From: Candidatus Bathyarchaeia archaeon
GTDB lineage: Archaea > Thermoproteota > Bathyarchaeia > Bathyarchaeales > Bathycorpusculaceae
Length of the DNA: 64,000 bases
Assembly (NCBI GenBank): GCA_038883795.1
Contig: JAVZLK010000007.1
Coordinates: 1-64,000 of the forward strand
Direction of reading: 5' to 3'
Positions 1 through 41,079 of the stretch are shown here, piece after piece. A model generated the notes under the pieces. It was given only the letters and a program-made list of their open reading frames with translations. It ran no database searches and was not told the origin of the DNA. Numbering within the stretch: the stretch's first letter is position 1; each line of letters begins with the position of its first letter. Position numbers and translations under genes: made by a program.

Positions 1-597
1 TACTTTTTTGCTACGTCTAAGAAAAGTGTCTTTGAACTTGTAATGCTCTAACGCTTCCTTCTCTTCATTATAATAATCGCTAAGCTTATGCTTCCTTGCC
101 AAATCAATGATTAAGTTATAGCTTGCTATTGCCTCATTAAGACGCATTCCACTAACAGTTATGAAATCCATAAACAAAGCTAAATCAGATCTTGCATTCT
201 TAACTTGTCGAATCCACTCAAAGACTTCATTCACGTCTTTAGTCTTGGTTAATCTTTCAATGACAATTTGATCGCTTGACTTACCGCTCCACTCAATAGC
301 ATGACTACGCATAAGATTCTGGAATTGCGGATAAATTCCCAGGTATTTTGAAAGGTTCGCTAAAGCTCTAATGACATTGCCACGCACAGTTTTAGGCAAG
401 GTTTGAATTTCGCTAAAGTTTCCATTCAAAAGACAATGAGCATATTTCCGAGCGTAATTTACGCAATACTTCCCATATTCGCTTCTGCTTCTCTGAAGCA
501 TGAAATTTTGAAACCCATTCCAATCAATCGCTTCAAATTTAACCTCTGAGTCTTCCAAGCTTGCGATCCCGGGTTCAAATCCCGGCGACCGCACCAA
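1..597 (-). mobile_element. SSV-type tyrosine integrase, C-terminal fragment int(C), running off the left edge of the window
   Basis: Manual translation of an open minus-strand frame: LVRSPGFEPGIASLEDSEVKFEAIDWNGFQNF...ALANLSKYLG...SGMRLNEA...LEHYKFKDTFLRRSKKV. It contains the GxRxxE box of tyrosine recombinases and its N-terminal part reads through the tRNA-derived att site. Absent from the ORF track because there is no stop codon in the window. Confidence 0.85.
552..596 (+). repeat. Attachment site: 3' half of tRNA-Gly(TCC)
   Basis: CTTCCAAGCTTGCGATCCCGGGTTCAAATCCCGGCGACCGCACCA gives anticodon loop, T-arm, acceptor 3' strand and CCA. No D-arm or 5' acceptor strand upstream. Confidence 0.85.
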
Positions 598-2575: not shown

Positions 2576-4099
2576 ATGCATGAAGTGCGTATCGACGGGG
2601 AAACCCTAACCATTGAGGACGTTATAAAAGTTGCAAGAGAAAACGCAAAAGTCGTAATACCAGAAAAAGTAAAAGAGAAAGTGAGAAAAAGCCGAGAAGT
2701 TTTGGAAAAACTCGTCAAAGAAAAACAGATAATTTATGGCGTCAGCACGGGCTTCGGCGCTTTAAGCAACAAAACCATCACGCCTGAAGAAAGCAAAAAA
2801 CTGCAAACCAACCTCATCAGAAGCCACTCCACAGGCGTTGGAAAAAATTTAAGCACAGAAATTGTCCGCGCCCTCATGCTTTTACGAGTGAATACGCTTG
2901 CTAAGGGATATTCTGGCATACGCCTAGAAACCCTAGAAACCCTCGTGGATATGCTAAACAAAGGGGTACACCCAATAATCCCAGCAAAAGGCTCTGTGGG
3001 GGCAAGCGGAGACCTTGCCCCATTATCGCATATGAGTTTGGTGCTTATAGGCGAAGGAAAAGCCGAATACAAAGGCAAAGAAATGAGCGGAAGGGAGGCA
3101 ATGGAAAAAGCAAACATAAACCCCATTCAATTAGAATTTAAAGAGGGCATAGCCTTAAACAATGGCACACAACTAATGACAGCCATAGCCGCACTGGCGG
3201 TTTATGACGCTGAAAACCTAATTAAAACAGCGGAAACTGCAGCCGCCTTAAGCCTCGAAGCAATGCTTGGCGTTTCAGATGCCTTCGATGAAAAAATCCA
3301 CAAAGTAAGACCACACACTGGACAAGCAATAACAGCAAAAAACATAAGAGAACTAATCATGGGAAGCCAACTTATCCAAACGGGAAAAGAAGCCTTTGAA
3401 AGACTGAAGCGTCCCCACGACCCCTACAGCCTAAGATGCACACCCCAAATTTTAGGCGCCGCCAGAGACGCCATAGCCTACGCAAGAAAAGTTGTGGAAA
3501 TTGAAATCAATTCAGCCACAGACAACCCCCTCATCTTCCCAGAAGAAGAAATATGCCTTTCAGGAGGAAACTTCCACGGACAACCCCTAAGCCTTGCCGT
3601 GGACCTTCTCGGAATAGCCCTAACCATCATCGGCAATTTATCAGAAAGAAGAATCGCCAGACTTCTCGACGAAAAACTCAACAATGGCTTGCCAGCTTTT
3701 CTAATTCCACCAGAGGCAAAAACTGGATTAAACAGCGGATTAATGACTCTACAGTACACAGCAGCTGCTCTCGCTTCAGAAAACAAGGTTTTAGCCCATC
3801 CAGCATGCGTAGACTCAATTCCAACATCAGCAAACTTTGAAGACTTCGTAAGCATGGGAACAACTGCAGCCCAAAAGGCCATGCAAATCCTAGAAAACAC
3901 AGAATACATAATAGCCATAGAGCTTCTATGCGCAGCCCAAGCAATAGACCTTCGAGGACCAGAAAAGCTTGGAAAAGGAACCAAAAAAGCGTATATAGCC
4001 ATCAGAAAAATAGTGCCGATGCTAAAAGAGGACAGAGTGCTAAGTGAAGACATAGAGAAGATTAAACAAGCTATGTATACTCTTTTAAGGCTTGAATAA
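2576..4099 (+). CDS. hutH: Histidine ammonia-lyase
   Basis: YGVSTGFG, MIO-forming GASGDLAPL, YSLRC, SATDNP, SGGNFHGQP, EDFVSMG. Confidence 0.93.
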   Translation: MHEVRIDGETLTIEDVIKVARENAKVVIPEKVKEKVRKSREVLEKLVKEKQIIYGVSTGFGALSNKTITPEESKKLQTNLIRSHSTGVGKNLSTEIVRALMLLRVNTLAKGYSGIRLETLETLVDMLNKGVHPIIPAKGSVGASGDLAPLSHMSLVLIGEGKAEYKGKEMSGREAMEKANINPIQLEFKEGIALNNGTQLMTAIAALAVYDAENLIKTAETAAALSLEAMLGVSDAFDEKIHKVRPHTGQAITAKNIRELIMGSQLIQTGKEAFERLKRPHDPYSLRCTPQILGAARDAIAYARKVVEIEINSATDNPLIFPEEEICLSGGNFHGQPLSLAVDLLGIALTIIGNLSERRIARLLDEKLNNGLPAFLIPPEAKTGLNSGLMTLQYTAAALASENKVLAHPACVDSIPTSANFEDFVSMGTTAAQKAMQILENTEYIIAIELLCAAQAIDLRGPEKLGKGTKKAYIAIRKIVPMLKEDRVLSEDIEKIKQAMYTLLRLE

Positions 4100-5009
4100 C
4101 TTTCTCCGCTACTGCTACAGCGAGCCTCTTAAGGGTTTCCTCGCAATTTGCTGCTAAATGGGGTGTAAGAATAACATTATCAAACCTTGTTAAAGGATTA
4201 TCTAAACTTAAAGGCTCAGATTCGAAAACATCCAAGGCTGCTCCAGCCACCTTTCCAGAAACCAAAGCCTTATACAATGCCTTTTCGTCTATGACTGCGC
4301 CCCTAGCCGTGTTAACAATGTAAACGCCACGTTTCATTAAAGCAAACTCCTTAAAGGAAATCATATGATAAGTTTCGGAGGTTAACGGAACATGAATCGA
4401 TATTATGTCTGAAATCTTCAAAAGTTCGTTAAAAGAAACGTATTTTACTCCAAGCTGCCTTTCAAGCTCCACGCTTCTGTTCCGCTTATAATAGACCAAG
4501 TTGACGTTAAAACCGCAAAGCCTCTTAGCAACAGCGCTTCCAATCCGCCCAAATCCCAAAATCCCTATAGTCTTACCCATAAGCTCAACGCCCACTAGAC
4601 CACTGTATTTCTTGTTCCACTCTCCCTTTCTAACCGCGCCGTCAGCTAAGGGTATCTTTCGTAAGAGAGCCAAGATAAGTCCAACAGTGAATTCAGCCAC
4701 GCTATCGGTTAATGCCTCTGGAGTTCGAACTATACGAATACCCTTTTTCTCTGCAAAATCCACATCAATATGATCAACCCCTACACCATGAACCCCAATC
4801 ACTTTAAGATTCTTAGAAACATCCAAAACTTCCCTCGGAATTTTTATAAAACCCCTAGTAATAAAAGCGTCAGCCTCCCTACAAAACTTTAAAATATCCT
4901 TCCAACCAGCATCGGGGCTAAGCTGAATTACCTTTCCATATTTTTCCAAAACTCCTATACCACAAGAGTGAATGGGTTCTATTACAAGAAAAGTGAAACT
5001 TTTATCCAT
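4071..5009 (-). CDS. D-isomer-specific 2-hydroxyacid dehydrogenase (SerA/glyoxylate reductase-like)
   Basis: GVGVDHID, GFGRIG, NTARGAVID, LDVFESEP, TPHLA. Confidence 0.92.
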   Translation of the reverse strand: MDKSFTFLVIEPIHSCGIGVLEKYGKVIQLSPDAGWKDILKFCREADAFITRGFIKIPREVLDVSKNLKVIGVHGVGVDHIDVDFAEKKGIRIVRTPEALTDSVAEFTVGLILALLRKIPLADGAVRKGEWNKKYSGLVGVELMGKTIGILGFGRIGSAVAKRLCGFNVNLVYYKRNRSVELERQLGVKYVSFNELLKISDIISIHVPLTSETYHMISFKEFALMKRGVYIVNTARGAVIDEKALYKALVSGKVAGAALDVFESEPLSLDNPLTRFDNVILTPHLAANCEETLKRLAVAVAEKVIQALKEYT

Positions 5010-5068
5010 AACGCTCTACCTGCCATTAGCATACATAAAATAGTGTTCAAGTTAAATTTATGATTGCT

Positions 5069-5203
5069 TGGTCGGGCGGGCAGGATTTGAACCTGCGACA
5101 CTCCGGTTTCCGCTTTGCGTTTGTGCGCTTGGTAGGCTGATTTGGCACCCACCATGGGTGGATGTCTACAGCCGGAAGCTCTACCAAGCTGAGCTACCGC
5201 CCG
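5069..5203 (-). tRNA. tRNA-Tyr(GTA) with a 58-nt intron at 37/38 (5108-5165), CCA encoded
   Basis: Acceptor CGGGCGG/CCGCCCG-A-CCA (C1:G72 and A73 are archaeal Tyr identity elements), D-arm TAGCTCAGCTTGGTAGAGC, anticodon arm TCCGG-CTGTAG/A-CCGGA, T-loop GGTTCAAATCC. Confidence 0.93.
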
Positions 5204-5258
5204 AACCAAAAATTCTAAAATAAGAAGATTAGATTTATGCCTTTCGTTAATGACTGTT

Positions 5259-6239
5259 TTAGTGGGCTATTTTGTGGCATGCTACGTAATGTCCTTTTCC
5301 AACATCTACTAGTTCGGGCTCTTCAACAGAACATTTGGTGTTTTTGTATGGACATCTTGTGTGGAATCTGCATCCAGATGGTGGATTAATCGGACTTGGA
5401 ACTTCCCCCTTCAACTCCATGTATTTTCGTTTAACTTTAGGATTTGGTACAGGTATAGCTGACAAAAGCGCTATAGTGTAAGGATGAAGAGCTTCAGAGA
5501 AAATAGTTTCTTTCAAACCGGTTTCAACGATTTTTCCCAGATACATTATAGCTACTTTGTTGGAGATGTACTTGGCTACAGCTAAATCATGAGTTATAAA
5601 GATGTAAGTTAAATTAAGCTCTTCTTTCAGTTGCATCATAAGTTCAAGAATTTTCGCTCTTAATGAAACATCTATCATAGAAATGGGTTCATCAGCCACA
5701 ACAAGGTCAGGATTAAGAATCATTGCACGGGCTATGGCAGCTCTTTGCCTTTGACCCCCACTAAGTTCATGAGGATAAGCATAATAGAACTTTTCAGCTG
5801 GTTCGAGACCAACTTTTTCCAGCATTTCCAAAACAAGTTTTTTCTTTTCTTCCTTAAACGCCATATTGTAAATCTCCAAGGGATTACCTACAGAGTCTCC
5901 TATTCTCATCCGAGGGTTAAGGGAAGCATAAGGATCTTGAAATATTATTTGTGCATGCTTTCTAATTTTTCTTAAAGGTTCTCCTTTCAAGAACGTTATA
6001 TCTGTTCCCTTAAAGAAAATTTTTCCATCAGTAGGCTCGATAAGGCGCACGATCAACCTTCCAGTCGTTGTTTTTCCACATCCGCTTTCTCCAGCTAATG
6101 TGAAAACTTCTCCCTTCTCAACTTCAAAGCTTATTTCATCCACCGCTTTAACATATTCCAATTTTCTGCTTAGAAGTCTCTCCAGAAAACTTTTTTGCAC
6201 CGGGAAGTATTTCTTTAATTTCTCAACTTTCAAAAGCAT
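5259..6239 (-). CDS. Oligopeptide/dipeptide ABC transporter ATPase (OppF/DppF-like)
   Basis: GESGCGKT, LSGGQRQR, ADEP, C-terminal PSGCRFHTRC...VACH. Confidence 0.93.
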   Translation of the reverse strand: MLLKVEKLKKYFPVQKSFLERLLSRKLEYVKAVDEISFEVEKGEVFTLAGESGCGKTTTGRLIVRLIEPTDGKIFFKGTDITFLKGEPLRKIRKHAQIIFQDPYASLNPRMRIGDSVGNPLEIYNMAFKEEKKKLVLEMLEKVGLEPAEKFYYAYPHELSGGQRQRAAIARAMILNPDLVVADEPISMIDVSLRAKILELMMQLKEELNLTYIFITHDLAVAKYISNKVAIMYLGKIVETGLKETIFSEALHPYTIALLSAIPVPNPKVKRKYMELKGEVPSPINPPSGCRFHTRCPYKNTKCSVEEPELVDVGKGHYVACHKIAH

Positions 6240-6254
6240 GAAAGCCTATCCCAC

Positions 6255-7226
6255 TCATTTCACATAGTTAAAGCACTTCACAAAGTGCCCTATTTTAGCC
6301 TGAATTAATGGAGGCTCCTTTTCTTTGCATATTTCTTTAACATAGGAACATCTTGGATAAAACCTACAACCTTTAGGAGGGTTAATCAAGTCTGGCGGCA
6401 TTCCTGGGATATACTCAAGTTTTTGGTCTGAAAGTTGGATGTTAGGCACCGAGTGGAGTAATGCCTCCGCGTATGGATGCAAGGGTTCTTCAAAAAAGGC
6501 TGTAACTTCGGCAAATTCCACTAAATGACCAGCGTACATTAGAGCAATTTTATCAGCTATTTCGGATACTATGCTTATGTCGTGTGTTATTAAGATCAAG
6601 CTCATGTCATAAAGCTTTTTTAAACTTTTCATGAGCTCCAAAATTTGAAACTGAACTATCACATCAAGGGATGATGTCGGTTCATCTGCTATGACCAAGT
6701 CGGGTTTCAAAGCCAAAGCTAAAGCAATTCCAACCCTCTGCCGCATTCCTCCACTGAATTGATGCGGATAATCATTAAATCTTTCACGAAGAATACCGAC
6801 ATCTTCTAAAAGCTTCAACGCCCTTTCACGAGCTTCTTCTAAATTAACTTTTTCGTGTGTTAGTATTGTTTCTGTAAGGTGTTCACCTATCTTCATTAAG
6901 GGGTTCAAAGAAGTTGTAGGATCCTGAAAAACCATAGAAATTTTCTTACCCCGAATTTTTTGCATTTCTTTCTCATCCAATTTCGTTAGGTCTATTCCTT
7001 GAAAAAACATTCTTCCATTAACTATTCTACCAGGCGGAGGAACAAGCTTTAATATGGCTAGACCCAAAGTTGATTTTCCAGAACCGGACTCCCCGACCAC
7101 CCCTATAGTCTCTCTCTTTTTAATTGAGAAATTTACATCATCTACCGCTCTTACCATCCCCTCTCTCGTATAATAGTAAACTTTTAGGTTCTCTGTTCTG
7201 AGAAGCTCCTCCGCCATCACCTTCAT
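6255..7226 (-). CDS. Oligopeptide/dipeptide ABC transporter ATPase (OppD/DppD-like)
   Basis: GESGSGKS, FSGGMRQR, ADEPT, GCRFYPRC. Confidence 0.93.
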   Translation of the reverse strand: MKVMAEELLRTENLKVYYYTREGMVRAVDDVNFSIKKRETIGVVGESGSGKSTLGLAILKLVPPPGRIVNGRMFFQGIDLTKLDEKEMQKIRGKKISMVFQDPTTSLNPLMKIGEHLTETILTHEKVNLEEARERALKLLEDVGILRERFNDYPHQFSGGMRQRVGIALALALKPDLVIADEPTSSLDVIVQFQILELMKSLKKLYDMSLILITHDISIVSEIADKIALMYAGHLVEFAEVTAFFEEPLHPYAEALLHSVPNIQLSDQKLEYIPGMPPDLINPPKGCRFYPRCSYVKEICKEKEPPLIQAKIGHFVKCFNYVK

Positions 7227-35529: not shown

Positions 35530-36690
35530 TTATAGAGCCTTGAAAGCTTCGAACCATCTGTTATAAAGCGCCAGCATGTCAAGGGAAACGCTTGGCTTCC
35601 GCTCTTCCAATATTTGTCTGAAATCGTCCATTGTTAAGAATCTTGGCTTAGCCAACTTATTTGCGGCTTGACCAGACTCGAAGAATTCGCCTATAATTTT
35701 TAGTTGTGCTGATTGGCAAACGTCTCTTATGTCGCTTCCAGAAAAGCCTTCGGAAAGCCTAGCCAATTCGTGCAGGTCAACGTCTGGAGCAAGCTTCAAA
35801 TGGCTGGTGTAAAGCTTAAACATCATCAACCGCGTGTGGTGGTCTGGAAGGGGCACCAAAATTCTTTTCTGAAATCTTCTGATGAAAGCCCAGTCCAAAT
35901 CCCAAGGCTTGTTTGTTGCTCCAATAACGTAAACGTGAAGATTCTTACCCTTGTCTATAATGCCGTCGGTTTCCTTCAAAAATTGGTTTCGAACCCGAAC
36001 TTCCCCGCCAACCTCATTTGAATGTCGCCCCATAAGAGAATCCAACTCGTCAATGAAGACTATGGCGGGTTTTCCTTCCAAAGCTGATTTTCTAGCAGAA
36101 GCAAAAAGTTTAGCAACATTTTGTTCAGCTTCGCCTAACCACTTGGACATTATTGAAGCTGCATCAATAGAAATGAAAGTGGCGTCTATCTCTGTAGCAA
36201 CAGCCGCAGCCAACAAAGTCTTTCCACATCCAGGCGGACCAAACAATAGAATGCCCCTCGGCCAGCCTAAGGGGAAGAGGTCTGGTCTCTGAACTGGATA
36301 AACTATGGCTTCTTTGATTGCCTTTTTCGCATTTTCCAGGCCGATGACTTCTTCCCATTTCACGTTTGGCTTTTCAGTAACTATTAATTCCTCATAAGTT
36401 GATTTTCCCTGGCTAGTTTTGGCGCCGGCTTCAACATTAGCGGCTTCCTCTTGTGGCGGTATAGGCGCTGCGCCTTGCAAAGCCTTTATTCTTTCTTGGT
36501 AGGCTATGGCTCTTTGAATATACACCTTGTTTAGGCTATATTCGGGATATAACTGTACAAGTTTTAGGAGGCTCTCAATAGCCTTTTGATACATAGTTAT
36601 TGCCATACCGCGGGACCCTTGCTTATCTAAGCGAACGGCTTCCAAGGCGTAATTGGTTGCGGCTTTCTCAAGTTCTTGGGAAGCACTCAT
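35530..36690 (-). CDS. cdvC: Vps4/CdvC AAA+ ATPase with N-terminal MIT domain
   Basis: MIT (AVRLDKQG...YQKAIE...YQERIKAL), GPPGCGKT, SKWLGE, FIDELD, ATNKPWDLD..FIRRF. Confidence 0.95.
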   Translation of the reverse strand: MSASQELEKAATNYALEAVRLDKQGSRGMAITMYQKAIESLLKLVQLYPEYSLNKVYIQRAIAYQERIKALQGAAPIPPQEEAANVEAGAKTSQGKSTYEELIVTEKPNVKWEEVIGLENAKKAIKEAIVYPVQRPDLFPLGWPRGILLFGPPGCGKTLLAAAVATEIDATFISIDAASIMSKWLGEAEQNVAKLFASARKSALEGKPAIVFIDELDSLMGRHSNEVGGEVRVRNQFLKETDGIIDKGKNLHVYVIGATNKPWDLDWAFIRRFQKRILVPLPDHHTRLMMFKLYTSHLKLAPDVDLHELARLSEGFSGSDIRDVCQSAQLKIIGEFFESGQAANKLAKPRFLTMDDFRQILEERKPSVSLDMLALYNRWFEAFKAL

Positions 36691-36702: not shown

Positions 36703-37596
36703 CTATCCGGATTTTAATTCAATTTTTATTTTTCCTTTGGCTCCCAAACTTTCAAGAGCCTTCTCAATTTCTTCATAAGAGGCTTTCAAATCAACCGAGC
36801 AACGTTTCAGGTCAATTTCTCCATTACTCTTCTTAACATAGTCGAGGAGAACATCTTCTAATGATGGTTTTTCAACTTTTAAGGAAATTTCTTGAATCTC
36901 AGCTTTCTTAAAAGAAAGGAGGGTTTGAGAAGAATTTCTTTCAGAATCCTCGACTGTTTCATTCGCTATGGCTTGCGAACAGTTAGCGGCTAAGGCTACC
37001 ATTTCTTTTAATGTAGTTTTTTCAGGTTCTGGCGTTTCTAAAGTGGCGGGCGGTTCAGGGAGCTCCTCACTCAATTTTTGTTCGAGGAAGCTTGAAACTT
37101 CTTTTAATATTTCTTCGCCACCGGGTGTTTTCTTGCCCACGGGAATTAGGGTTTCGTCTGCTGTTATTTTTGTTGAATATAACGTTTCGCTTATTGTTTC
37201 GTTAACCTTGCTAAGTTCTGATGAGACATCTGGCAAAACTTCATACAACTGTTGCGAAACACTCTGCAGAATTTTTAGGGCTGGTTTTAAATCGAAAACT
37301 ATGTCGCTTAACTCTTTTATTGTTTCAAGTCTGAGAATTACACGTTCTATGGCTAACTCTACATTGTAAAGAAACTTTATCAGCTTTCTAATTTCTGCAA
37401 TTTCGTTGGCGCAGAGGGTTGCCCTTTCCTTATTTTTATTGTTGAGGGCGTTTATGCATGTTTGAAAGAGGATTCTGTCTCTTTCTTTCAGTCTGAAACT
37501 TGCTTGTTCAAGTTTGTTACGTTGAACTTTTAAGGTTTGTATTGATTTTATAACTACTTCACGGAGTGGAGGGCTTTGGCGAATAAATCCTTTAAT
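36703..37596 (-). CDS. cdvB: ESCRT-III CdvB (Snf7 core, MIM2 and C-terminal winged helix), about 297 aa, probable ATT start
   Basis: The frame of ORF 36703-37248 is open up to TAG at 37615-37617. The added part reads IKGFIRQSPPLREVVIKSIQTLKVQRNKLEQASFRLKERDRILF...ANEIAEIRKL...LAIERVILRLET, matching the paralog at 38374. Also ELPEPP and a winged-helix tail. Confidence 0.88.
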   Translation of the reverse strand: MKGFIRQSPPLREVVIKSIQTLKVQRNKLEQASFRLKERDRILFQTCINALNNKNKERATLCANEIAEIRKLIKFLYNVELAIERVILRLETIKELSDIVFDLKPALKILQSVSQQLYEVLPDVSSELSKVNETISETLYSTKITADETLIPVGKKTPGGEEILKEVSSFLEQKLSEELPEPPATLETPEPEKTTLKEMVALAANCSQAIANETVEDSERNSSQTLLSFKKAEIQEISLKVEKPSLEDVLLDYVKKSNGEIDLKRCSVDLKASYEEIEKALESLGAKGKIKIELKSG

Positions 37597-37626
37597 AGCT
37601 TTTCCCTCCGCCCGCTACTTTATGCC

Positions 37627-38358
37627 TTATATGCTCGCCTTTCCCAACTCTTTCACATAAACAATCACAGGCGGCTCCGGAAGATCAGGAGCGCTAGGCG
37701 ATGATGTTGACGCCTCAGTTGTTTCTTTACTTTTTTCCTGTTCCAGTGGTTTTGGCGTTTCACCCAATATAATGTTTGTAAGCTTGGTTTTTGTCTGCTC
37801 CAGGTCACTTTTCTTTGCGTTAACTCTTTTCAGATTTTCTTGTATTATGGAAAAAGCTGTTTCATAAGATTGGTCGTCTACTTTTCCAATCTCATGTTCA
37901 AGTTCAAGATGCACCAAAGCGTAGTTAAGTTCCTTAATTTCGTTGGCGCATTTGGCTATTTCCTTGTCAGTCTCCTCTATAAGGGCTTGGGCTTCAGTTT
38001 TCAACTGGTTTAATGCGCCATCAAAGTTGCTGTGGAGTTCTTCGTAGAGTTCTGATGAAATCTTCTTCTTTTCTAAAAGTTCTTTGAGGGCTTGGTTTTT
38101 GCGCCATAAGAGGGGAATTTGATCGCATAAAGCGTTTGCTTCTGCTTTAATGTGTGATGTGAGTGTAACATCTGCTCCATCGAATTTTAGGTGTTCCATG
38201 GAGTATTTTAAGAATTTTCCGTCGCCTTGTTCTATGAAGACGGCGTCAAATTTTCCGCTTGGAGTTAATGCGAAAGAAGCTATTTTGCCTATTGGGCATC
38301 CATATTCGTCTTTAATTTGTTTTCCAAGAGAAAGAAAAGGATTGGGGGTTTGTGACAT
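37627..38358 (-). CDS. cdvA: Cell division protein CdvA
   Basis: N-terminal PRC-barrel-like LGKQIKDEYG..IGKI, coiled coil, C-terminal beta-strand PVIVYVK; position upstream of cdvB-cdvC. Confidence 0.87.
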   Translation of the reverse strand: MSQTPNPFLSLGKQIKDEYGCPIGKIASFALTPSGKFDAVFIEQGDGKFLKYSMEHLKFDGADVTLTSHIKAEANALCDQIPLLWRKNQALKELLEKKKISSELYEELHSNFDGALNQLKTEAQALIEETDKEIAKCANEIKELNYALVHLELEHEIGKVDDQSYETAFSIIQENLKRVNAKKSDLEQTKTKLTNIILGETPKPLEQEKSKETTEASTSSPSAPDLPEPPVIVYVKELGKASI

Positions 38359-38373: not shown

Positions 38374-39036
38374 TTAAGAGGTTTCTGTTGGCGCCTTTTC
38401 GCTTATGGGAGTTGTTGGAATTCCTGGTGGCAGCTCTGGGAACTTTTCTTTGATTCTTTGTTCTGCAACTGTGGCTGCTTCTGTGAGAATTTTCTGGGCA
38501 TCTTCATTTACCGTGTCAAAGTTTAGGGTCATTCCAGAACTTTGTCCAGCCTCGATCATTATGCCGCTTAAAATGTTGCCTATTTCGCCAAGTTCAGTTT
38601 CCGCTTCTGGGAAAACGCTTGCGAGTCCAGCTCTCACAGATCTTAAAACACCAACTGCTGGTCCTAACGTGGAAACTACATCTCCAAGTTCTGATACCGT
38701 TCGTAAACGTAATACTATTTGTTCAAGGGCAAGTCTAGCGTTCATTATTAGTTTCTCCATTTTGCGAATTTCAGCTAATTCATTGGCGAAAACGTTTGCG
38801 CGGGCGGTGTCATGCTTTGTGTAGGCGTCAACTATCCTTGCAAATATCGCTTTGTCTCTCTGGCTGAACCTTTCAGACGCTTGATCTAGCTTCTGAACTT
38901 GAAGTTCAATGCGTCTTACGGCGAAGTCTAAGCGTGGCTTTAAAGGTCCTGGTGGTCTCACGGCCTCTTTTATGCGGGTTGTGAAGGGTTGCTCTTCTCT
39001 TCTGCTTTCCCATTTTTTACCAAATCTTTCAGACAA
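38374..39036 (-). CDS. ESCRT-III paralog (CdvB1/B2-like, Snf7 family)
   Basis: QVQKLDQASERFSQRD, ANELAEIRK, LALEQIVLRL, EAATVAE...FPELP (MIM2-like); no winged-helix tail. Confidence 0.9.
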   Translation of the reverse strand: MSERFGKKWESRREEQPFTTRIKEAVRPPGPLKPRLDFAVRRIELQVQKLDQASERFSQRDKAIFARIVDAYTKHDTARANVFANELAEIRKMEKLIMNARLALEQIVLRLRTVSELGDVVSTLGPAVGVLRSVRAGLASVFPEAETELGEIGNILSGIMIEAGQSSGMTLNFDTVNEDAQKILTEAATVAEQRIKEKFPELPPGIPTTPISEKAPTETS

Positions 39037-39262
39037 ATTAATACCTCCGAAAAGAGAAGGGCGCAGAGAATAATCTTATACATTGTTAATATGTTGAAAA
39101 CATGCACGTATATACGTAGAGCTATATGTCCCAGAAAAAACGGTTTTAGGCTTTAGTTAGAAAAATAAAAGATGCTGTTGCTGGTTTTGGAGTAATAGAC
39201 ATAAATGTGTAAGTTAGACTAAAAAGAGGCTTAATTTGAATTCTAAGCAAAGGTGAAATTAG

Positions 39263-39481
39263 ATGGGTGAAAGGTTAAAGGTTTTCGGATTAGTGGCGCT
39301 TTTAGGATTCATGGCAGGAATCATAGCCCAACTCACAGCAGACTACATCATTCCAGCACTCTTAGAAATCTTGCCAGCCCTCGTCCAAATAAGATTCTTA
39401 GTTTCAGGATTTGCAGGAGCATGCCTAACGCTGGTCTTAATAAGCATTTGGGCCTACATCACTGGACCCACAGAAAGATAA
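39263..39481 (+). CDS. Small two-TM membrane protein, divergent from the cdv operon
   Basis: 72-aa ORF with AGGTGA SD and two hydrophobic helices. Confidence 0.7.
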   Translation: MGERLKVFGLVALLGFMAGIIAQLTADYIIPALLEILPALVQIRFLVSGFAGACLTLVLISIWAYITGPTER

Positions 39482-39534
39482 ATTCACTAATTCCCTTTCT
39501 TTACTTTACGAATTTTTAGCTTATATGCCATTTT

Positions 39535-39602
39535 TGGACTCAGGAGCGGAAAAAGCAATCATCCGCTTAAGGGTCAGTGTACCTCGATTACGTCATCGTC
39601 CA
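39535..39602 (-). ncRNA. Box C/D methylation-guide sRNA
   Basis: TGGAC-GATGA-CGTAATCGAGGTACA-CTGA-CCCTTAAGC-GGATGA-TTGCTTTTTCCGCTC-CTGA-GTCCA: terminal stem, C/D'/C'/D boxes, two guides of similar length, intergenic. Confidence 0.85.
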
Positions 39603-39643
39603 TAATTGAAATGCCCATCAAAAGTTATTTAGTTTTCGGACAT

Positions 39644-40195
39644 TTATTTAGGCTGGTACGTTTTTGTCACATCCAAAATTTCCTTGTCTGTCAATGCATA
39701 AACCAAATTTACGTCTTTATTCCATTCTTGAATGTACATTAAAGGCTGGTCAATTCTTTTTTCAGTAGGGTCCACATGAACCCAACGGTTGTTAATGAAA
39801 ATTTCAACCCAAACGTGATCTCCCGCCGCCTTCCTTGACTTGTCTTTGAGGGTAGAGCAGTCGATAACTATGCGACTTTTATAACCATTTGCCAATAGTA
39901 AACCGTTGTAGAGCAAGGCGAATTCTCCACATCGTCCTTTTGATTGATGAATTATTTGTATGGGTAATTCGGCACGGGGTTTGGGTAATTCTTCCCTAGT
40001 ATATTTAAGGTGTCTATGCTCCCAGTCCAATAGCTCTTTCCAATCTAAATTTTCAATGGGGTCTTGTAAAACATATTTTGCAAAATTGATAAGTTCCGCC
40101 CTATATTCGGGTGTTGCCATTTTCTCGTAACGCCTCTGATAAATTTCCACAATCTGTGGATGTTTCTGAGATTGCTTAGGCGAGTTGTTTCTCAT
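39644..40195 (-). CDS. Transglutaminase-fold Cys-His-Asp hydrolase resembling the peptide:N-glycanase core
   Basis: GRCGEF, DHVWVE, RWVHVDPTE, DQPLMY..EWNK, DVTKTY. Confidence 0.85.
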   Translation of the reverse strand: MRNNSPKQSQKHPQIVEIYQRRYEKMATPEYRAELINFAKYVLQDPIENLDWKELLDWEHRHLKYTREELPKPRAELPIQIIHQSKGRCGEFALLYNGLLLANGYKSRIVIDCSTLKDKSRKAAGDHVWVEIFINNRWVHVDPTEKRIDQPLMYIQEWNKDVNLVYALTDKEILDVTKTYQPK

Positions 40196-40248
40196 TTATG
40201 TTCACTCAAAATAGTTTTTGCCCACGTTTTCTGAAAAGCTTTAGTTTA

Positions 40249-40270
40249 AAAGTTGAAACATATCAACTTT
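40249..40270. promoter_or_regulatory. Palindromic candidate operator AAAGTTGA-N6-TCAACTTT
   Basis: Perfect 8-bp inverted repeat abutting TTTAAA, between divergent genes. Confidence 0.55.
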
Positions 40271-40287
40271 GGAATGAGGCTATTATA

Positions 40288-41079
40288 ATGTGTGGCATAT
40301 TTGGCTTTGCACTAAAAAGGCATGTGCCAATGGTTAAAGTTTTTAGGGTTCTCCAGAAATTGGAAGTTCACCAGTACCCAAATGAGCCTAGACCAGTTGG
40401 CGGTTTCGGCGCAGGTGTGGCTATTCTCAAAAAGGACGGAAGCATTCTTTTGGAAAAGGTTGGAAAATCATATGATGTTTCACCAGCAAGACTTTTGTCT
40501 GAAACAGTTAACGTTAGCGAAGCTTATGTTCTAGTTGGGCATGTGCGAATGCCAAGTTCCCAATTTATGGAAACGGCGAGGTTTAGGGAAACAGCCCAGC
40601 CTTATGTTACGCAATGCCTTCCCGATTCAACGATGATTTCAGCCCATAACGGAAATGTAACAAATTACAATACTATAAGGGAAAAACTTGGCGCAAAACA
40701 CATCTTTGAGTCGGAAAAAGTAGAGTTAATCGATTCTGAAGTCATCCCACACTTATTCGAAGAACTTTTGCTTAAGAAAGCCAACCCAAAAGAAGCCCTA
40801 GAAGCCCTCTTCCAAACTTTAGAAGGGTCAAATACTTTAAGTCTTCTGCAAATTGAATCAAATCGTTTGCTATTACATTTTGTTCATAAAGGAAAAACTA
40901 GAGGGTTAACAATATGGAAAAACGATGATGGAGAGGTTGTTTTCTGCTCTCGGAAAGAGCCTTTAATGGAAGAGTTTGGCGATGTTCTAGGCGAAGGTGA
41001 GTTCAGAGGGCAAGTTTCTATCCAATATGGAGAAGAAGCGAGTTTAAAGATGACAATCCCTCTTTCGAGTTTACTATAA
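40288..41079 (+). CDS. Stand-alone class II glutamine amidotransferase (Ntn hydrolase)
   Basis: N-terminal MCGIFG (start re-assigned to ATG 40288), GHVR, AQP, HNGNV, DSEV. Confidence 0.85.
   Translation: MCGIFGFALKRHVPMVKVFRVLQKLEVHQYPNEPRPVGGFGAGVAILKKDGSILLEKVGKSYDVSPARLLSETVNVSEAYVLVGHVRMPSSQFMETARFRETAQPYVTQCLPDSTMISAHNGNVTNYNTIREKLGAKHIFESEKVELIDSEVIPHLFEELLLKKANPKEALEALFQTLEGSNTLSLLQIESNRLLLHFVHKGKTRGLTIWKNDDGEVVFCSRKEPLMEEFGDVLGEGEFRGQVSIQYGEEASLKMTIPLSSLL

Follow-up and report, generated by a model that had tools for sequence, protein, structure and literature searches.

Among the closest described relatives of the protein analysed here are the eukaryotic peptide:N-glycanases (PNGases) Png1/NGLY1 (1X3W, 3ESW, 2F4M/2F4O). 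[quoted passage not shown] Proteases, isopeptidases and deamidases are found in the transglutaminase fold as well. Among transglutaminase-like domains, those of PNGase and Rad4 stand out by the C-terminal extension past the Asp (Anantharaman et al. 2001, cited via PMC6222260). The domain parts of Png1 are named here as laid out in section 5 of PMC9102325, where the Zn-binding Cys pairs of the yeast enzyme are reported to be necessary for activity.

Archaeal PNGase homologs were reported by Krishnan, Burroughs, Iyer and Aravind (2018, iScience, PMC6222260). The main text of that paper describes (i) cytosolic thaumarchaeal homologs which carry a Zn-binding domain and are sister to eukaryotic PNGase and Rad4, and (ii) euryarchaeal surface homologs linked to an NxS/T-repeat glycoprotein, EVE, REase and PIWI, for which a role in an anti-invader conflict was proposed; every non-thaumarchaeal archaeal homolog is described there as a cell-surface protein. 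Bathyarchaeota do not occur in this main text (supplementary lists apart). A full-text literature search returned no paper joining Bathyarchaeia with PNGase, retrieved the term 'archaeal PNGase' only from the above work and its preprint, and yielded no activity data for any archaeal PNGase homolog.

The window, a 64,000-nucleotide stretch of DNA from a hot-spring Bathyarchaeia archaeon, contains on its minus strand a single ORF with an ATG start which encodes a protein of 183 amino acids (39644..40195). An earlier note on this DNA had proposed, from an ordered series of motifs, that this protein matches the core of Png1/NGLY1 and has neither a transmembrane segment nor the Zn-binding CxxC pairs. 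All motifs quoted there were found in the translation (PRAELPIQIIHQSKGRCGEF, GDHVWVE, NRWVHVDPTEKRIDQPLMYIQEWNK and DVTKTYQPK), and they follow each other in the same order as in the eukaryotic enzymes (PR..P...L....GRCGE; DHVW.E; RWVH.D..E..DQP..Y...W.K; DV...Y).

A phmmer search of 177,635 distinct PDB sequences gave three matches, all of them to PNGases: yeast Png1 (1x3w, E = 1.2e-13; 3esw, E = 1.4e-13) and mouse PNGase (2f4m, E = 2e-10). The aligned query residues 73-181 (39653..39979, minus strand) comprise the transglutaminase core and a PNGase/Rad4-type post-Asp extension (DQPLMY...W.K...DVTKTY), of which residues 143-181 align with Png1. Pfam assigned Transglut_core (8e-15) and DUF553 (PF04473; 7.8e-8, 32.3 bits versus a cut-off of 20.5) to the 183-aa protein and, apart from a sub-threshold match to DUF6581, nothing else. 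When 1.84 billion cluster representatives were searched with HMMER, 1300 matches were obtained at E <= 1e-3. Among the 70 of the top 150 matches that were covered by a Pfam scan, the best were short proteins with only Transglut_core or DUF553, and the weaker ones, from E~1e-15 on, were multi-domain eukaryotic PNGases with PAW, PUB or Rad4 domains. All nine relatives of 322-2000 amino acids were PNGases of eukaryotes, in which Pfam recognised Rad4, PAW or PUB. The resemblance of the 183-aa protein to Png1 is far beyond chance.

PNGase-like proteins scored at least 104 bits against an HMM of the core and were covered to position ~130, i.e. through the post-Asp extension. Five generic transglutaminase-like ORFs of related genomes scored 53 bits or less, with alignments ending at position 102 or before. 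The homology of the window protein is specifically to the catalytic core of Png1/NGLY1 and goes beyond the generic Cys-His-Asp triad. A sixth low scorer, locus L021 (39.9 bits, aligned to position 115), carries part of the post-Asp extension and is not a clean outgroup. This locus of genome G051 is an ORF of at least 918 amino acids with a transglutaminase-like domain, in which PNGase-type post-Asp motifs (DNPRLYEEGWRKN) occur together with the low overall score.

A first AF2 model based on 20 close homologs was poor (pLDDT 68.9) and was superseded by one built from a 125-row alignment which takes in distant archaeal members and 21 eukaryotic PNGases (pLDDT 95.7, pTM 0.91). Foldseek of this model against the PDB, a comparison proposed in the earlier note, ranked mouse and yeast PNGase in the top four places (E from 1.0e-8 to 2.6e-8), followed by XPC. 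With VIA-align (48,161 representative chains) the best match was again mouse PNGase (2f4o_A; Z 16.2, rmsd 2.4 Å; 159 of 183 residues aligned at 28% identity, model 8..183 on chain 164..391), followed by XPC (Z 12.8), Rad4 (Z 10.9) and generic transglutaminase folds (Z 11.2 or less). The motif-based match to the Png1/NGLY1 core is thus reproduced by software, as the only PDB sequence matches and the best structural match are PNGases. Since the structural alignment spans model residues 8..183 and not only those after residue 73, the N-terminal helices are also part of the PNGase core. This N-terminal region (residues 10-72; 39980..40168, minus strand) was delimited by the alignment with eukaryotic PNGases, the secondary structure of the model and VIA-align; in the AF2 model it contains three helices (residues 14-27, 29-42 and 52-62).

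Rad4/XPC, the second-best structural match, has the post-Asp extension in common with the window protein, and one family member (P0114) has a precomputed hit to PF03835. However, Rad4/XPC has lost catalysis and is joined to DNA-binding BHD domains, whereas the window protein keeps the triad and stands alone.

The predicted nucleophile Cys89 (codon 39929..39931), His127 (39815..39817) and Asp142 (39770..39772), all on the minus strand, align with C191, H218 and D235 of yeast Png1 (yeast numbering: chain index + 7, verified on the triad). The triad is invariant in all 20 family rows. In the 125-row alignment G87 and C89 are invariant, and the following positions are at least 90% conserved: L55, R74, P78, E91, R108, D126 and H127 in the part up to the catalytic His, and W129, E131, W138, H140, D142, P151, Y154, W158, K160, A167, V176, T177 and Y180 in the part beyond it. 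Query residues R108, W129, E131, D142, E145, W158 and K160 align with the same amino acids in yeast Png1 (R210, W220, E222, D235, E238, W251 and K253). Of the latter we take R210, W220, E222, E238, W251 and K253 to be chitobiose contacts in 3ESW, a structure whose chitobiose-contacting residues were reportedly described by Zhao et al. in 2009.

Several parts of Png1 are missing. Where the last N-terminal helix of the protein has LLDWEH, the aligned helix in eukaryotic PNGases has LLxWFK; the Zn ribbon of eukaryotes (~35-40 residues, CxxC...CxxC; C129, C132, C165 and C168 in yeast), which would sit right after this helix and before FPRYN, is absent. Cys89 and Cys113 are the sole cysteines of the protein, CxxC does not occur, and the alignment with eukaryotic PNGases shows a gap for the whole block, as the earlier note had claimed for the Zn-binding pairs. 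With a chain that ends three residues past DVTKTY, the C-terminal helices which help to bind Rad23 in yeast are absent as well, and so are the N-terminal Rad23/HR23-binding helices, PUB and PAW. Conversely, an 11-residue clade-specific insert (residues 114-124) lies before and beside the His strand and is without counterpart in Png1.

Hydropathy was screened in 120 listed family members (19-residue window, mean Kyte-Doolittle hydropathy of at least 1.6). No TM-like segment was found in any of the 120, and the family maximum was 1.41, which agrees with the claim that the protein lacks a TM segment. The window protein is predicted to be soluble and cytoplasmic.

A search for proteins of near-equal length returned 274 relatives; the named ones all belong to Bathyarchaeia/Bathyarchaeota and are annotated merely as transglutaminase-like. 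Among species-representative genomes, the protein query matched 21 of 201 of the class, and orthologs of at least 79% identity were present in three. Related loci were retrieved with the pattern GRCGEF[AS][LI][LAT][YF]; the 55 loci are almost all from Bathyarchaeia, and because the pattern finds close kin only, this is no proof that the family is confined to the class. Most of the nearest relatives beyond the family (41-55% identity) start with a few basic residues and a hydrophobic helix, a predicted membrane anchor that would leave the domain outside.

The phylogeny of transglutaminase-core proteins, proposed as a check in the earlier note, was determined with IQ-TREE (52 rows, 129 columns, rooted on generic transglutaminase-like ORFs). 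A 100/99 branch joined all PNGase-like rows, the window protein included, apart from the generic ORFs. This branch was divided in two: the eukaryotic PNGases grouped with the Zn-bearing archaeal proteins (95/79), and the other group (92/92) consisted of 27 Zn-less archaeal rows, among them the window protein. The window clade fell into a 100/99 group of 13 together with seven anchored proteins. A quick tree of 101 rows agreed with this careful tree. A reading of the window protein as the archaeal branch nearest to eukaryotic PNGase does not hold; it nests among Zn-less anchored archaeal relatives. Forcing the window clade to group with eukaryotes and Zn-bearing archaea cost 29.3 lnL units (p-AU 0.011). 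A second soluble Zn-less clade of Bathyarchaeia (~163-190 aa, sharing 35-42% identity with the window protein; loci L005-L011 and L066-L086, e.g. L066:6001-6456) was recovered separately, and uniting the two soluble clades was rejected (p-AU 6.8e-5). Both p-AU values are indicative because the groups were named after the tree had been seen and the alignment is short.

The published Zn-bearing thaumarchaeal class was reproduced by L107 and L109, from two genomes of the same phylum as the window organism, both soluble and with CxxC...CxxC. Such Nitrososphaeraceae homologs are likewise archaeal, small (~240-250 aa) and soluble; their triad is intact and they have the extension typical of PNGases. 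They differ from the window clade in that they carry the Zn ribbon and group with eukaryotes (95/79), whereas the Zn-less window clade lies across the split. The DUF553 surface homologs share the Zn-less PNGase-like core, and the window protein scores above the DUF553 cut-off; unlike them, however, none of the 120 proteins screened from its clade carries a signal or anchor segment, and among eight neighbouring ORFs Pfam did not reveal the published link to NxS/T-repeat glycoprotein or restriction-type genes. The claim of an archaeal Png1-like protein is sound as to the resemblance and late as to the kind, since such homologs have been in print since 2018 (PMC6222260). As the main text of PMC6222260 calls all non-thaumarchaeal homologs cell-surface proteins, the soluble Zn-less clades look new, and a soluble Zn-less form which arose inside the 'surface' branch appears to be undescribed.

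We read the window protein as a soluble, cytoplasmic 183-aa cysteine amidase of the PNGase/Rad4 branch whose clade arose from anchored Bathyarchaeia relatives and whose adjacency to cdv genes is accidental, and put the probability of this reading at roughly 0.55. Homology, fold and an intact triad are observed; the role as an amidase follows the example of Png1. By this analogy, Cys89 would attack a glycosylated Asn at its side-chain Nδ-amide, while His127 would serve as the base and Asp142 would orient His127; the glycan would leave as a glycosylamine and the Asn would be converted to Asp. The enzyme would probably act on N-glycopeptides or on unfolded N-glycoproteins present in the cytoplasm, from sources such as imported glycopeptides or membrane and secreted glycoproteins under degradation. 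N-glycoproteins are expected in this organism because its genome encodes an AglB/STT3 oligosaccharyltransferase (148.6 bits). A Png1-like pocket would suit the N-glycans of Thermoproteota (e.g. Sulfolobus), as these are built on a chitobiose core, and Bathyarchaeia are often described as peptide scavengers. Archaeal N-glycosylation occurs outside the cell, so that a cytoplasmic pool of substrate is hypothetical. Also against the amidase reading count the loss of the Zn-binding Cys pairs which yeast Png1 is reported to need, the insert at residues 114-124 that is foreign to Png1, the range of other enzymes with the transglutaminase fold, and a gene neighbourhood in which no conserved gene points to a pathway. 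We give true N-glycanase activity roughly even odds.

The strongest alternative is that the protein, despite its PNGase ancestry, is a cysteine protease, an isopeptidase or a protein deamidase which acts on peptide or isopeptide bonds, such as those of small-protein conjugates, or on Gln/Asn side chains and not on glycans. We regard this as a serious though less probable option. It is consistent with a Pfam assignment limited to Transglut_core and DUF553, with the absence of the Zn domain, which helps to shape the cleft of Png1, and with a cytoplasmic location, which suits peptides better than glycoproteins. In addition, structural neighbours at Z 7-11 comprise putative proteases (3kd4, 3isr, CPR-C4), LapG and pseudomurein endoisopeptidases. 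These matches, however, rank at least 5 Z units below PNGase, and the conservation shared with eukaryotic PNGases continues past the triad and includes the post-Asp extension which most generic transglutaminase-like proteins lack.

The N-terminal anchor would have been lost in the window clade within Bathyarchaeia, independently of the Zn-bearing thaumarchaeal/eukaryotic line. A bolder and tentative proposal is that cytoplasmic Zn-less N-glycan removal evolved at least twice in Bathyarchaeia from exported ancestors, independently of the eukaryotic Png1 line. If so, N-glycopeptides or N-glycoproteins would be processed inside Bathyarchaeia cells, be it in salvage of imported glycopeptides or in a primitive ERAD-like clearance of secreted and membrane glycoproteins, and the 183-aa protein would be the smallest natural Png1-type PNGase, from a hot-spring organism. 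Were the protein an N-glycanase, a Png1-type core would work without the Zn ribbon that yeast Png1 needs, intracellular deglycosylation would extend beyond eukaryotes and their thaumarchaeal-type relatives, with a bearing on the origin of ERAD-like quality control, and a very small, probably thermostable PNGase would become available for glycoproteomics. Were it a protease or isopeptidase, a functional switch would have taken place within the PNGase clade.

Whichever activity applies, the suggested tie to ESCRT does not hold. According to the earlier note the gene lies about 600 bp from an ESCRT-III/Vps4 operon, a linkage which was said to be perhaps coincidental. The distance between its stop (39644) and the start of cdvB (39036) was measured as 607 bp, with the PNGase-like gene upstream and on the same strand. 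All genes of the operon are on the minus strand: cdvB/ESCRT-III (38374..39036), cdvA (37627..38358), a second cdvB-family gene (36703..37611; NCBIfam CdvB1/B2, 1.1e-36) and vps4 (35530..36690). Between the PNGase-like gene and cdvB a 72-aa hydrophobic ORF is encoded on the plus strand (39263-39481; no Pfam hit), which is conserved at 67-96% amino acid identity across six syntenic relatives.

Synteny bears directly on whether the protein is a partner of the Cdv/ESCRT-III-Vps4 machinery, trimming for example glycoproteins or conjugates at the division site or at vesicles. For such a role speaks, besides the short distance and common strand, that the order PNGase-like gene, 72-aa ORF, cdvB, cdvA, cdvB-like, vps4 is kept in six other genomes. 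Those six, however, are the closest kin only, with PNGase-like proteins 75-93% identical; cdv linkage was seen at six of 25 named loci (at least 61% identity), all six of at least 75% identity. Within the examined flanks no cdv gene was found at L037 (82% identity), at any of 18 loci of 61-72% identity or near any of seven distant homologs, and the synteny across Bathyarchaeia that the earlier note wished to see checked is thus not kept. In other sub-lineages the gene follows topoisomerase IB or a TrmI methyltransferase. Moreover, the opposite-strand ORF and a candidate small RNA stand between the genes, and the PNGase-like gene would form a separate transcription unit. A functional Cdv/ESCRT link is largely refuted by synteny and we consider it very improbable; because the linkage is conserved only in closest kin, it is best read as inherited local gene order, and the adjacency looks like a local accident, as the earlier note had allowed.

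A part in a conflict with invaders, the role suggested by Krishnan et al. for the euryarchaeal surface homologs (PMC6222260), is similarly far-fetched: the neighbourhoods given there and a large Lhr-type helicase two genes away, which matches helicase models of defence systems, would favour it, but PADLOC found no defence-system signature in the 183-aa protein or its three nearest neighbours, the helicase matches are generic (NCBIfam: ATP-dependent or ligase-associated helicase), the helicase is adjacent in closest kin only, the protein is soluble and not at the surface, and the eight neighbouring ORFs include no NxS/T-repeat protein, EVE, REase or PIWI family according to Pfam.

No neighbour was conserved across the family, transporter, proteasome, Cdc48 and glycosidase genes included. 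In the window the neighbours are the cdv genes, the 72-aa ORF, a GATase domain, a bPH_2 protein and the Lhr helicase, with the GATase/bPH/Lhr block common to closest kin only. The GATase gene (plus strand, 40198-41079, probable start 40288 with MCGIFG) encodes a stand-alone class-II (Ntn) glutamine amidotransferase domain of ~263 amino acids (GATase_6/7). It is divergent from the PNGase-like gene, gave weak GlmS and PurF N-terminal hits and adjoins the PNGase-like gene only in L036, L037 and L060. At four loci, genes for a DHDPS-Fae fusion protein and a TrmI-like methyltransferase precede the PNGase-like gene. At eight others, in eight Bathyarchaeia genomes (L040, L048, L049, L052, L055, L056, L057 and L059; ~3100-6550) it directly follows a gene for a eukaryotic-type topoisomerase IB (Topoisom_I, 5e-59), located 80-125 bp upstream on the same strand. 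Six of these eight loci have an ORF for a 139-aa 'PhageMetallopep' zinc-peptidase-like protein ahead of the topoisomerase; a peptidase beside Top1 recalls, by analogy, DNA-protein crosslink repair.

The intergenic stretch between the PNGase-like stop and the 72-aa ORF contains a candidate archaeal C/D-box small RNA (39535-39602, minus strand). Its putative elements are a terminal stem GGAC/GTCC, a C-like ACGAUGA, a D' CUGA, a C'-like GGAUGA and a D CUGA, with two 15-nt spacers. No match within 38900-39800 was obtained with ARAGORN or Rfam. Conservation of the candidate among the closest relatives is 87-95% and its fold z-score only -1.74; short pieces of it occur, with dissimilar flanks, in contigs of four runs, one RNA-seq run among them. 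The sequencing runs found were hot-spring metagenomes, searched as contigs, of which two labelled 'metatranscriptomic' were flagged as probably DNA; the single true RNA run contained short conserved pieces only, outside the PNGase-like gene.

Finally, the second ESCRT-III gene has no ATG, GTG or TTG among its first 122 codons, and the ORF list for this reason shows only its last 181 amino acids. Codon 6 past the upstream stop reads ATT in the window as in L036, but ATG in L060, which points to ATT as a near-cognate start or to a polymorphism of the start codon.
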